Shown piece after piece: positions 3,898-7,377 of a DNA stretch of 8,601 nt (the first letter of the stretch is position 1; every line of letters begins with the position of its first letter). The stretch lies in IMG/VR virus record IMGVR_UViG_2700989489_000020; one strand, 5' to 3'. The notes beneath the pieces are model-generated. The model worked only from the letters and a program-made list of their open reading frames with translations. It was not told where the DNA came from and made no database searches. The stretch is from a virus (Duplodnaviria > Heunggongvirae > Uroviricota > Caudoviricetes). The translations under genes were made by a program, and so were the position numbers.

Positions 3898-4631
3898 TCA
3901 TTGCCCGGACTTCCGACAAATCCCGGCAACCATATCCCGGTGCTTGTTCAGCTCCCGCAGCGCGGCGCAGACTCGCTCCCACTTCTGGACATGATTCTTC
4001 GCCCTACGCAGTTCGCGATTTGCCATATGCAGCGATGGCAAAATCAAATCATCTTCTCGCGTTGCAGTAAACGATGGCAGCGACTGCACAATGTCCGCCA
4101 CAGTTTCTGTTTTAATATCTTCCTGTGTTGCATCTTTCTGTACCGGTAACGAACACCGGCTGGCTGAGGAAAGGCTTTACCATCGGTTTCCGCTACCGAT
4201 TCAACTTTCGGCTCTGCTGGTAAATTATCACCTGGTATGCAGTAACGAATTTTACCGTTCTGGTTTACGCGAATCAGACGACCTTTGCTGATTGCCATTG
4301 CCAGCGTTGAAGCAACTTTGCGGGATGTTGTACCGAACAGCGTAGCCAGTTCATCCGCCGTTTGTGGTCCGCGTTGTTCAATCGTCGCGGTTAAATCGCA
4401 CTCTGAGATTTTCGCTTCTGTTGCCGTGGTGGTTTCTTCTGGCGCTGGCTGTTCCTGCTGAACGTTGTTATCAGCCACACGCCAGGTGTATACGCTTTTA
4501 TCAACGAAGCCAGCCTTTTTCAGTTCCCACAGCTCGTTCAGTACTTCTTCACGACTGATATCAAGTCGCGCAGCCAGCTCTACCGACGTGGCTTTTCCCA
4601 TCGCTTTCAGTGCGTCAAAAACAGTCTCCAT
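3898..4631 (-). CDS. Winged-helix prophage protein (DUF1627-like), apparently frameshifted near 4140-4180
   Basis: ORF 4044..4631 has GGGAGGAAA 5 nt upstream of the ATG and an HTH-like N-terminus, but its last ~40 aa are low-quality. A second frame (open from 4176, ORF 3898..4101) encodes plausible sequence [73 protein letters not shown]1627 name is from memory. Confidence 0.5.
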
Positions 4632-4664
4632 AAATTTCCTCCCGGTAAAAAATCACTTCTCAAC

Positions 4665-5330
4665 TCAAACAAAACCAGCCGCTTTCCGGCGTTCATATTC
4701 CTGTTTCAGCAACTCAATTGGCGTTGGCCCCGACGGGCGTTTGGGGGCCGCCAGTTGTCGCCGGACTGGCGGAACGCTCAGGCCGTTACTAACATGCTTT
4801 GCCCATTTCGTCAGTTGCCGTTCTGCAAGCCGTTTTAATTCCCCTTCGGTCATCTGGCGCTCAATCCCCTTTGAACGCATCTCGAGGCAAATGTGATACA
4901 GCACAGGCTGAGACCACGGGTACTTATCACTTCCGTCGTATCGCCAGGACTCATTGCGCCAGCGGCGGTACTCCTCCATCACAGCATCCACCGTCAGACC
5001 GAATGGATTGGCTCCGCTTTTCGAAATCAGTGCCACAAACTCAGCCAGGTCCGGAGGCCATGTTTCACCCGCCCGGCAGCGGTCCATGCACTGGCGGCAG
5101 ACCTGCCGGATTTGCTGCTCAGTCATCGCGCCAATCTGTGCAATCCAGAGCTTCGAAGGTGCGGCCCCGTTCTTCTGGATCCAGCGGTTCGAATAAACCA
5201 CCCCCATGAGTTCCCACAGCTTCCAGGCCGTTTCCGTCGCTGATAAATCCGTTTTCACGTTCCCACTGCTCACGTGCTGCCCGAATTTCCTGAACTGCCC
5301 GTGATGCGGTGCCACCTGGTGCTGCTGCAT
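4665..5330 (-). CDS. Lambda P-like replication protein (DnaB helicase loader); true start uncertain (5330, 5204 or 5126)
   Basis: C-terminal half aligns by eye with lambda P (YPWSQPVLYHICLEMRSKG...GELKRLAERQ versus lambda YPWKSNAHYWLVTNLYQNMRAN...AELRRKAADE). Internal ATG at 5126 overlaps the O-like stop as ATGACTGA. Confidence 0.8.
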   Translation of the reverse strand: MQQHQVAPHHGQFRKFGQHVSSGNVKTDLSATETAWKLWELMGVVYSNRWIQKNGAAPSKLWIAQIGAMTEQQIRQVCRQCMDRCRAGETWPPDLAEFVALISKSGANPFGLTVDAVMEEYRRWRNESWRYDGSDKYPWSQPVLYHICLEMRSKGIERQMTEGELKRLAERQLTKWAKHVSNGLSVPPVRRQLAAPKRPSGPTPIELLKQEYERRKAAGFV

Positions 5331-6159
5331 GGTTTACCCCTTTGCTGACTGGTTTAACCTGCGCCCTGACGTGATTTACGTGACGGGCGAATTTCTGCTC
5401 CCACTGAATCTGCGTAAACACTTTCCCCTCCGCTGCCCAGTAGTCCCGGAAGGCGGCAAGTTCAGCAGGTGTAAATTCTGTCTCCGGCAAAGCCATCCCC
5501 CACAACGCAGCCCGTCGTCGAAAATCCCGTGACGGATACCAGCTATCGCTCATCGGGAATTTTCCGATGGGTTCGCTCAGGCCATACAGGAATACAGGGG
5601 GGGCTGCCTGTAACGACAAAACTTCCTGCTCACTGGTCGGAGCACTCTCGCGTGCGTTATGTGTGGGGTTTAGATCTTTGGGTTCCTTTGGGTTCCGTGA
5701 TCCGTTTTTGGGTGTCTTTGATGGAAAATTTGGGTGTCTTTGGTTATTTTCCATGCAGCTAAGAGTTCTGTTTTTGGGTCTGTTTTGTGCTGAAACATAA
5801 CCATTTTCGGTACTGTTTTTATTAACAGCACCAATTTTACCCACCTTTAAAGACTCCCGTTTTTGGGTGTATTCAGGCTCGGCAACACTTTCTTCTACAC
5901 CGATAAGTCGGTACACCACAATTTGCTTTGTTCTGCCTTTTCTCTCACCGGTATCAACAATTAACCCAATCTCCATCAGGTGTCGTAAGCTGTCCTGCAC
6001 AGTCTTTTTGTTCAGTTCCGTTACTTCTGCCAGTGCAGATACAGACGGGTATGCACACAAATCGGCACCGCACATATCAGCAAGCCAGGTCAATACTGAC
6101 TTACTGGATGAACTGCCGGTTTTCACCTTTTTAGCCCATCGTAGTGCATCGATACTCAT
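5119..6159 (-). CDS. Replication initiator (O-like): N-terminal winged-helix DNA-binding domain, low-complexity linker, DnaT-like C-terminal domain
   Basis: ORF track 5119..6234; start placed at the internal Met MSIDALRWAKK (ATG 6157-6159, AGGGG about 8 nt upstream). Linker region coincides with the iteron array. Domain assignment from recalled family features. Confidence 0.8.
   Translation of the reverse strand: MSIDALRWAKKVKTGSSSSKSVLTWLADMCGADLCAYPSVSALAEVTELNKKTVQDSLRHLMEIGLIVDTGERKGRTKQIVVYRLIGVEESVAEPEYTQKRESLKVGKIGAVNKNSTENGYVSAQNRPKNRTLSCMENNQRHPNFPSKTPKNGSRNPKEPKDLNPTHNARESAPTSEQEVLSLQAAPPVFLYGLSEPIGKFPMSDSWYPSRDFRRRAALWGMALPETEFTPAELAAFRDYWAAEGKVFTQIQWEQKFARHVNHVRAQVKPVSKGVNHAAAPGGTASRAVQEIRAAREQWERENGFISDGNGLEAVGTHGGGLFEPLDPEERGRTFEALDCTDWRDD
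5676..5871. repeat. Iteron array and AT-rich stretch: candidate phage origin of replication inside the initiator gene
   Basis: Six direct copies of core TTTGGGT: CTTTGGGTTCC at 5676-5686 and 5686-5696; TTTGGGTGTCTTTG at 5707-5720 and 5729-5742; TTTGGGTCTG at 5773-5782; TTTGGGTGTA at 5862-5871. AT-rich 5783-5858 lies between the last two. Confidence 0.6.
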
Positions 6160-6682
6160 ACGAACCCCTGGCAGACATTTGTTTATCTGCAAAGTAATAT
6201 TGGTATTGCTGACGATACGCGTGCTTGAAAGCAATAGCTTTTTCTATAAGCTCGTCAGTCTCACGTTCCACAACAACTGGATCCGCAAAAAGCAGCCCGG
6301 ACTCCACCACATCGCCATATTCTTTGTTTAACCCGGCGATCATGTACGTAATGCTTTTTCCGTCAGTAATTTCACAATACAATCTGAAATCGCTGATCCG
6401 GATAGCCTCCATAATTGCCGGAATCAGCGCCGTGAATTTGTCACGCTTATCTCTGGTGTCGATAGCTTTCCAGCGTTCGAATATCTTCACCCGGTTAACG
6501 CCCAGCGCCCGTTGATCAACCTCGCCATCATTAAACGTGACGCGTTGAACATCGATGTTCGGGCGTTCTTTCAGAGCCCAGAATGCTTCCGTGATTAATA
6601 TCGTCGCCTGCTCCTGTGTCATTCCTGGTCGGCATACCCAGGTATCCAGAGCCTCACAAACCTGTTCAGTGGTGATTTTCAT
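6131..6682 (-). CDS. YdaT-like protein in the cII position (183 aa)
   Basis: ORF track. Sits between the Cro-like gene and the initiator; overlaps the Cro-like stop by 17 nt and the initiator start by 29 nt. YdaT call rests on synteny with Rac racR-ydaS-ydaT and a loosely remembered motif. Confidence 0.55.
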   Translation of the reverse strand: MKITTEQVCEALDTWVCRPGMTQEQATILITEAFWALKERPNIDVQRVTFNDGEVDQRALGVNRVKIFERWKAIDTRDKRDKFTALIPAIMEAIRISDFRLYCEITDGKSITYMIAGLNKEYGDVVESGLLFADPVVVERETDELIEKAIAFKHAYRQQYQYYFADKQMSARGSYEYRCTTMG

Positions 6683-6893
6683 TGTTCAACCGCCCCGCCC
6701 GCTTTGCCTTACGATATTCGTCATAAACTTTGGGGTCGTACTGAAGTTCCCCGCCGGATGCCTCTTGCAGGCGCATCGCGCGACCTTCAGGAACCAGTTC
6801 CCCCCATGCAGCAACGCTTGCCAGCCTAACTCCTGCGACATTGGCAAGCTTTGTTTTGCTGCCAAAAAACGCTATAGCATCAATTTTCAACAT
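6666..6893 (-). CDS. Cro-like HTH regulator (P22 Cro / YdaS family)
   Basis: 75 aa. AAGGGG 6 nt upstream of the ATG. Core FFGSKTKLANVAGVRLASVAAWGELVPEGRAMRLQEASGGEL resembles P22 Cro from memory. Divergent from the repressor. Confidence 0.75.
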   Translation of the reverse strand: MLKIDAIAFFGSKTKLANVAGVRLASVAAWGELVPEGRAMRLQEASGGELQYDPKVYDEYRKAKRAGRLNNENHH

Positions 6894-6969
6894 ATCGAAC
6901 CCCTTAGATTTTCCTAAGGAAACTAGATCGTAGAGAAACCTAAGTCAAGAAAAATTAGAATTACCTAAT
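6894..6969. promoter_or_regulatory. Divergent control region with three 16-bp dyad operators and two back-to-back promoters
   Basis: Operators of form YTTAG-N6-CTAAR: CTTAGATTTTCCTAAG (6903-6918), CGTAGAGAAACCTAAG (6929-6944), ATTAGAATTACCTAAT (6954-6969), spaced 25-26 bp. Minus-strand promoter: TTGACT (plus 6943-6948), 17 bp, TAGTTT. Plus-strand -10 TAGAAT (6956-6961) ends 8 nt before the repressor ATG, with a poor -35. Confidence 0.6.
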
Positions 6970-7377
6970 ATGAAAAACGAAACCTTCGGTGCTCGCCTCT
7001 TATACAGGCGAAAAAAATTAAAACTGTCTCAGGCCGCATTAGGTAAGCTGGTCAAAGTGGCTCACGTAACAATTTCTCAATGGGAAAGAGATGAAACACA
7101 GCCAGCGGGGAAGAGATTATTCGCACTGAGCCAGGCGCTTCAGTGCTCGCCGACTTGGCTTCTTTTTGGAGATGAAGATAAGCAACCAGGCGAACCGATC
7201 CCAGATAATCAGCCAGTCAATCTGACAGAAGATCAAAAAGAGTTGCTTCAACTGTTCGACGCACTGCCTGAGTCAGAGCAAAAGGCTCTGTTGTCAGAGA
7301 TGCGTGCTCGAGTTGAGAATTTCAACAAACTTTTTGAAGAACTACTCAAAGCTCGCAAAAGAAGCGCAAATAAATAA
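6970..7377 (+). CDS. CI-like prophage repressor, XRE-family HTH, no S24 peptidase domain
   Basis: 135 aa. HTH in LSQAALGKLVKVAHVTISQWERDE. Too short for a LexA-like autocleavage domain and no such motif seen. No Shine-Dalgarno; apparently leaderless. Confidence 0.85.
   Translation: MKNETFGARLLYRRKKLKLSQAALGKLVKVAHVTISQWERDETQPAGKRLFALSQALQCSPTWLLFGDEDKQPGEPIPDNQPVNLTEDQKELLQLFDALPESEQKALLSEMRARVENFNKLFEELLKARKRSANK

Follow-up and report, generated by a model that had tools for sequence, protein, structure and literature searches.

The repeats embedded in the replication initiator gene of this lambdoid prophage are probably iterons that are bound by the winged-helix (wHTH) N-terminal domain of the protein encoded by the same gene, and together with an AT-rich stretch they would form the replication origin of the prophage. 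The architecture as such is already known, as it is the classic lambdoid arrangement with ori located within O. The window (the whole stretch of 8,601 nucleotides that was analysed) comprises the part of a lambdoid prophage that carries the immunity and replication genes; in megablast, 'PPompW' prophages from Shiga-toxin-producing E. coli match it with 99.9% identity. On its minus strand the gene order is Cro-like (6666-6893), YdaT/cII-like (6131-6682), initiator (5119-6159) and lambda-P-like helicase loader (4665-5330), and a DicA/CI-like repressor gene (6970-7377) is located on the plus strand. The loader gene, the partner of the initiator, was recognized by Pfam Phage_lambda_P (E=1e-16) and by phrog_109, 'P-like helicase loader' (E=1e-61), and it lies directly downstream of the initiator gene, as is characteristic of a lambda-type origin.

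The initiator gene and the P-like ORF share up to 212 nt (5119-5330), with the 3′ end of the former and the 5′ end of the latter read in different frames; in lambda and phiV10 the corresponding overlap is 4 nt. The phrog_109 match of the P-like ORF begins at residue 19, and a single profile, phrog_15931, covers both the initiator and the P-like protein. A hok/sok toxin-antitoxin locus was found on the minus strand at 1789-2091, with Rfam sok (RF01794) at 1942-2091 (104 bits) and a Hok-like ORF of 70 aa at 1789-2001. When the whole window was scanned with Rfam, sok was the sole match and none was obtained in the repeat region. A consensus scan of 5000-7100 for promoters and terminators gave no match in the array.

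The initiator gene, taken from the ORF list, encodes 346 aa from an ATG at 6159, and all homologues that were compared start with MSIDA. The protein matches a Pfam DnaT domain (E=9e-17), weakly HTH_36, and phrog_1032, 'replication initiation protein' (E=9e-91). The N-terminal winged-helix domain (aa 1-88; 5896-6159, minus strand), presumed to bind the iterons, was modelled by AF2 as H-H-H-H plus a beta hairpin with a pLDDT of 60-84. HTH_36 (PF13730) reached 23.6 bits in the window protein against a cut-off of 25; it was matched by 29 of 29 diverse family members at an E-value limit of 0.1 (best 3.6e-15), and precomputed HTH_36 hits exist for close homologues of the initiator. In Foldseek searches with the full-length model the N-domain retrieved generic wHTH proteins, including the plasmid RepA_N initiators 4pql, 4pt7 and 5kbj. 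The E-values to plasmid RepA_N were weak (0.01-0.04), so that no more than the fold class is shared with these proteins. The following segment (aa 89-195; 5575-5895, minus strand) encodes a linker that is predicted by AF2 to be disordered (pLDDT about 30), and it holds the whole iteron array. It is followed by a DnaT-like ssDNA-binding domain (aa about 196-278; 5326-5574, minus strand) that was identified by Pfam PF17948, NCBIfam DnaT and Foldseek, where it matched 6aeq/4ou6 with a target-normalised TM of 0.9 and 49-58% identity over about 70-80 residues.

Two family assignments of the protein were not supported. The match to NCBIfam DnaT (E=1e-26, 93 bits) is below the equivalog cut-off of the family, which is 201, and only the C-terminal ssDNA-binding domain matches, so that a classification of the initiator as DnaT (primosomal protein I) is not supported. 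Membership in the lambda O family (Pfam Phage_rep_O, PF04492) was not supported either: the N-domain alone gave E=0.046 and 14.7 bits against a cut-off of 28.7, and Phage_rep_O was absent from the Pfam matches of the full-length initiator.

The sequence-only reading had described six direct repeats sharing the core TTTGGGT within the initiator coding sequence, and had quoted the linker peptide correctly. All six were found on one strand (plus) inside the initiator gene, at 5677, 5687, 5707, 5729, 5773 and 5862 (5677-5868), and they are the only copies in the 8.6-kb window. About 1.5 copies are expected per window, and 1 of 200 shuffles gave six. Chance as the origin of the repeats is ruled out by these shuffles together with the recurrence of the repeats across phages. 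The two exact 14-bp copies that had been pointed out (TTTGGGTGTCTTTG) are likewise present, starting at 5707 and 5729, as is the 10-bp pair in tandem at 5677/5687. The heptamer TTTGGGT is not the full iteron, however: the conserved unit has 11 bp and reads CCCAAAAACGG on the coding strand and CCGTTTTTGGG on the plus strand. A degenerate copy at 5801-5811 had been missed. In homologues the unit also occurs in the variant form [AC]CC[AG]AAAACGG.

The window has seven such sites, all read on the minus strand: four full sites, of which two are exact, one has one mismatch and one is degenerate, and three half-sites. Iteron 1 (5857-5867) is an exact CCCAAAAACGG that is read as T-Q-K-R, and the TQKR/TQNR position is kept in homologues. 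Iteron 2 (5801-5811) is the degenerate ACCGAAAATGG, read as T-E-N-G, with ACCGAAAACGG in several close relatives. Iteron 3 (5768-5778) is CCCAAAAACAG, read as P-K-N-R; at its single mismatch the majority of close relatives keep the consensus ...ACGG. Iteron 4 (5702-5712) is again an exact CCCAAAAACGG, read as P-K-N-G. The half-site ACCCAAA at 5729-5735, read as H-P-N, lies within the 14-bp repeat, and the two tandem half-sites ACCCAAAGGAACCCAAA at 5677-5693, read as N-P-K / E-P-K, are degenerate in distant homologues. In the homologues of 50-57% identity, which come from Klebsiella, Enterobacter, Kluyvera and Salmonella, the half-sites at 5677, 5687 and 5729 are not kept as such. At 5768 the window has A and most close relatives have G, which changes CCCAAAAACGG to CCCAAAAACAG and Gly to Arg in the peptide; this A may make iteron 3 slightly weaker in this prophage.

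The array extends from 5677 to 5867 (codons 98-161 of 346), between the wHTH and the DnaT-like domain, and it is irregular, with spacings of 56, 33, 44, 22, 20 and 10. No other iteron-like cluster of the CCCAAAAACGG motif was found elsewhere in the window. Inverted repeats are present in the array as well (5721-5754, 5741-5803), namely ATGGAAAAT/ATTTTCCAT, perfect over 9 nt, and a 13-nt pair with 85%. The AT-rich stretch that the repeats had been said to flank is indeed present; it lies within the array, between iterons 1 and 3 (5779-5856), and it is modest. As judged from GC content and duplex stability it is a candidate unwinding region. The GC content is 0.32-0.38 at 5760-5859, with a minimum of 0.32 at 5780-5839, whereas the 3′ half of the gene has about 0.55-0.6. 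Within the initiator gene, duplex stability over 60 bp is lowest at 5792-5851 (z about 1.9 for the window); still lower values occur in intergenic parts of the window.

Genome loci with the DnaT-like C-domain in common were compared and searched for the motif with at most one mismatch. The CCCAAAAACGG motif was present in all six loci with an HTH_36-type N-domain (1-5 copies, coding strand only) and in none of their flanks (about 3 kb on each side). In loci in which other N-domains are joined to the same DnaT-like C-domain, it was found in 0 of 15. Initiators with the same N-domain thus keep the repeats at this position, and the proposal withstands a refuting condition that the sequence-only reading had named, the lack of the repeats in homologous initiator genes. 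Seven of the 15 loci with other N-domains contain repeated 9-mers of their own, suggesting that each N-domain type comes with its own embedded iterons. In-gene repeats in the initiator genes of loci L002, L010, L012, L015, L018 and L024 include TGTCACGAC (five times), GGAAGGGAA (three times) and GGATCAGGG (three times). Rac-type ydaU genes encode another N-domain, and the point from which they resemble the window coincides exactly with the array edge: a pairwise alignment places the mosaic junction at codons L-N-P-T-H (5665-5679), and the megablast match to Rac-SA53 covers only 4603-5679 of the window. Given this break at the array edge and the linkage between N-domain and motif, the N-domain together with its iterons forms one exchangeable cassette, and a second inherited module consists of the C-domain plus the P-like gene. 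By these comparisons, the iteron sequence co-varies with the DNA-binding domain of the initiator.

Phages of E. coli, Vibrio, Acinetobacter, Burkholderia and Edwardsiella have the same motif at the same place in the gene. Among annotated phages, tblastn with the N-domain identified phiV10, Bcep176, the Acinetobacter phages LZ35/AB1/AP22, Vibrio H20-like phages, Edwardsiella GF-2 and an EBPR podovirus. We inspected six of these loci (phiV10, Bcep176, LZ35, Vibrio H20, GF-2 and EBPR podovirus 1; GC 35-61%). Each harbours two to five copies with at most one mismatch, all on the coding strand and directly following the wHTH segment, and elsewhere in these loci the motif was found in 0 of 6. In four of the six, more than one reading frame of the motif is used. 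When viral contigs were scanned for two exact copies 4-34 nt apart, at least 120 loci were obtained. Among the matches listed, 113 ORFs form one BLAST component with 38 clusters at 60% identity, the modal iteron spacing is 24 bp and the flanks give a family-wide dyad consensus, AGTCCC-AAAAAC-GGGACT; in the window the arms of the dyad are weak and the conserved core has a length of 11 bp. Choosing the longest ORF led to the wrong frame in at least one contig of high GC (L193), and judged by its sequence pattern the real ORF there is again an initiator of this wHTH type.

With the N-domain alone as query, 2,274 clusters at 50% identity were retrieved from a protein library. In the best 125 of those matches (at least 180 aa), residues 81-200 contain [PT][KE]NG 123 times, QKR 91 times and PKT 79 times (frames 0/1/2), compared to 0, 4 and 4 in the remaining residues of the same proteins. 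On these data we lean towards the view that CCCAAAAACGG, with its dyad form, is the recognition site of an HTH_36 initiator superfamily of about 2,300 clusters at 50% identity, with hosts from Acinetobacter to Burkholderia, and that it is a shortened relative of the lambda O iteron. In an incomplete literature search we found no relevant paper on the 11-bp iteron (in both orientations), on HTH_36 origins or on the phiV10 origin repeats, and no description of the family-wide conservation of the 11-bp iteron or of its three-frame peptide shadow.

In contigs L134, L189, L195, L201 and L209, ATCCCAAAAACGGGTACATTCAAA arrays with a 24-bp period were found in non-coding DNA (e.g. L195 6212-6330), and the contigs also have ATCCCAAAATTGGGAA variants and one inverted copy. 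No initiator-like ORF of at least 70 aa was recognized within 2.5 kb of the non-coding arrays. Possibly these contigs are satellites, or else phages with a trans-acting initiator.

The sequence-only reading had likened the architecture to that of lambda ori, and this holds at the level of position. In the lambda paradigm, iterons to which O dimers bind lie, together with an AT-rich tract, midway in gene O (PMC7466680). The lambda origin, with an O-some on four 18-bp iterons, an AT-rich tract and P as the DnaB loader, likewise lies between the segments encoding the N- and C-domains. The annotated lambda iterons (TCCCTCAAAACGAGGGA and variants) are spaced by 20, 24 and 23 bp and are also read in different frames. 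Common to both systems are an iteron core of CCC / AAAAC / GG(G) with about 20-24 bp spacing and several reading frames, a P-like loader directly downstream with transcription from the cro side, and an N-domain that is swapped together with its iterons as a single cassette. The claim that the iteron is unrelated to that of lambda did not hold up: the CCC-AAAAC-GGG core, the spacing of about 24 bp and the position in the gene are shared, and on this comparison the window iteron is a relative of lambda's. The N-domains of the window protein and of lambda O match the same regions of phrog_678, phrog_345 and phrog_270, which suggests that the N-domain is a remote relative of that of lambda O. In a direct profile comparison the match between the two N-domains was weak (hhalign probability 17%) and the protein was therefore not filed in the lambda O family. 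Further differences from lambda are the Pfam assignment of the N-domain (HTH_36, not Phage_rep_O), the DnaT-like instead of lambda-O-like C-domain, the irregular spacing with an 11-bp core and weak dyad arms, and the position of the AT-rich DNA, which is inside the array here and to one side in lambda.

Edwardsiella phage GF-2 (L229) combines parts of the two systems. Its HTH_36 N-domain with CCCAAAAACGG and CCCAAAATTGG repeats is followed by a lambda-O-type C-domain, which is 62% identical to lambda O residues 156-299, and these residues start just past ori-lambda. In L145, exact CCCAAAAACGG copies accompany a bona fide Phage_rep_O N-domain (E=1.5e-31). As far as these two sequences tell, the modules of the initiators are reshuffled around one shared type of iteron.

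Among other known systems, the Stx phages 933W and P27 have an O/ori with six iterons, of which the extra, weakly bound ones are still needed (PMC7466680). They resemble the PPompW type as lambdoid prophages of STEC with ori within the initiator gene, but they have a true lambda-type O with its iterons, whereas the PPompW type is another combination of N-domain, iteron and C-domain. The Rac prophage, of the YdaU / 'primosomal protein I' type, shares the gene order dicA/dicC-ydaT-ydaU-ydaV, and its C-domain and P-like gene are 92% identical in DNA; Rac-type YdaU has a distinct N-domain, its N-terminal sequence matches genome-locus ORFs as well as homologues annotated as DUF1376, and the CCCAAAAACGG motif is absent from it. 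Iteron plasmids (pSK41 RepA_N, 4pql/5kbj) also have a wHTH initiator on direct repeats beside AT-rich DNA, although their iterons usually lie outside rep. DnaT of the PriA primosome of E. coli / Salmonella has an ssDNA-binding domain that matches the C-domain of the initiator, but the initiator lacks the DnaT N-domain and its context is that of a phage initiator.

The main alternative is that the repeats are initiator sites for autoregulation, copy control, handcuffing or an exclusion target, and that the true origin is elsewhere in the prophage. We consider this unlikely. Linkage to the N-domain shows only that motif and domain belong together; seen this way, sequence conservation proves a DNA-level constraint tied to the N-domain and does not by itself prove initiation rather than regulation. 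The modest character of the AT-rich stretch would also fit regulatory sites, as would the fact that some Stx-phage iterons are weakly bound and yet matter (PMC7466680). Against this, the GF-2 cassette sits exactly at the place of ori-lambda, the arrays of 2-8 sites with about 24-bp spacing resemble ori-lambda, and the window has no second iteron-like cluster of the motif.

It could also be argued that a repeated or low-complexity linker peptide (PKNG-like) is selected for protein function and that the DNA repeats are a by-product. P150-K151-N152-G153 is invariant in a 17-sequence protein alignment, where PKNG/PENG recur. This reading is very improbable, and it was largely refuted by frame usage and codon fixation. 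Within this one gene, ACCCAAA on the coding strand falls in each of the three reading frames (T-Q-K, x-P-K and (H/N)-P-(N/K)), and in relatives one DNA word is read as PKNG, (S/T)QKR and PKT(G/V) within single genes. More than one reading frame was used in 25 of 38 diverged clusters among the matches listed, e.g. 'WPKNGSTENGTTQKRDNPKTVRQLSQKR'. The codons of [PT][KE]NG peptides were then examined in 13 genes that had been picked by protein similarity only. Pro was encoded by CCC in 26/26 cases inside the peptides compared to 28/197 elsewhere (p=3e-19), Lys by AAA in 21/21 and Asn by AAC in 35/36; as some of the 13 genes are related, these counts are not fully independent, and the effect is still very large. 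The DNA-level constraint that had been proposed earlier is thus borne out by three-frame reading and fixed synonymous sites. In addition, the same word forms non-coding arrays in other contigs, and AF2 predicts the segment to be disordered. From these patterns, the repeats are constrained as DNA and not as peptide.

A third possibility is that the repeats are functionless, neutral products of slippage or recombination at the mosaic junction. The array does adjoin the recombination junction, and tandem 24-bp duplications were seen in relatives. Nevertheless there is little to be said for this explanation: the same 11-mer is found across hosts, in phage loci with a GC content of 35-61% and at an N-domain identity of about 30-45%, and close relatives show almost no variation in the iteron cluster. 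In 53 distinct near-full-length close relatives of the initiator, the cluster at 5680-5754 has a nucleotide diversity of 0.002-0.004, as low as that of the wHTH domain despite encoding a disordered linker. The first protein scan of viral contigs had returned close relatives only (92-100% identical), and it served this diversity analysis and not depth.

The pattern X XXY YYZ is the slippery pattern of -1 ribosomal frameshift sites. That C CCA AAG / C CCA AAA words would be such sites and yield a truncated, N-domain-only initiator is hardly credible: C CCA AAG and C CCA AAT at 5687-5693 and 5729-5735 (minus strand) match the pattern and the -1 frame from 5693 stops after about 10 codons, but the motif is used in all three frames, so that most copies are outside the slippery register, and it is also present in non-coding arrays.

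Since the repeats are DNA-level sites in the disordered-linker part of a lambda-O-like initiator gene, they are very probably the replication origin of the prophage. In the mechanism that we propose, rightward early transcription (cro, cII-like, initiator, P) would make the initiator. Its wHTH domain would bind the CCCAAAAACGG sites and, as the consensus of the whole family, AGTCCC-AAAAAC-GGGACT, has dyad symmetry, would probably do so in dimeric form. An O-some-like complex would then form and destabilise the AT-rich DNA at about 5779-5856. The DnaT-like C-domain would engage the exposed single strand and/or the P-like loader, and host DnaB would be delivered as in lambda.

For the prophage, this locates the probable origin together with the cassette that would set replicon specificity. 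If the wider reading is true, the linker peptides PKNG, (S/T)QKR and PKT(G/V) would be translational shadows of the origin, and origins could be read straight from protein sequences in thousands of uncharacterized phages. The non-coding arrays could then be satellites or elements that borrow the initiator of a helper. The motif would be of use as an annotation rule for phage origins, in predicting cross-talk or incompatibility among co-resident prophages and satellites, and in the design of minimal replicons. For the family, the origins of a very large, experimentally untouched group of initiators appear to share the 11-bp word as their mark; it would tie this group to the lambda O/ori paradigm and explain its odd low-complexity linkers.
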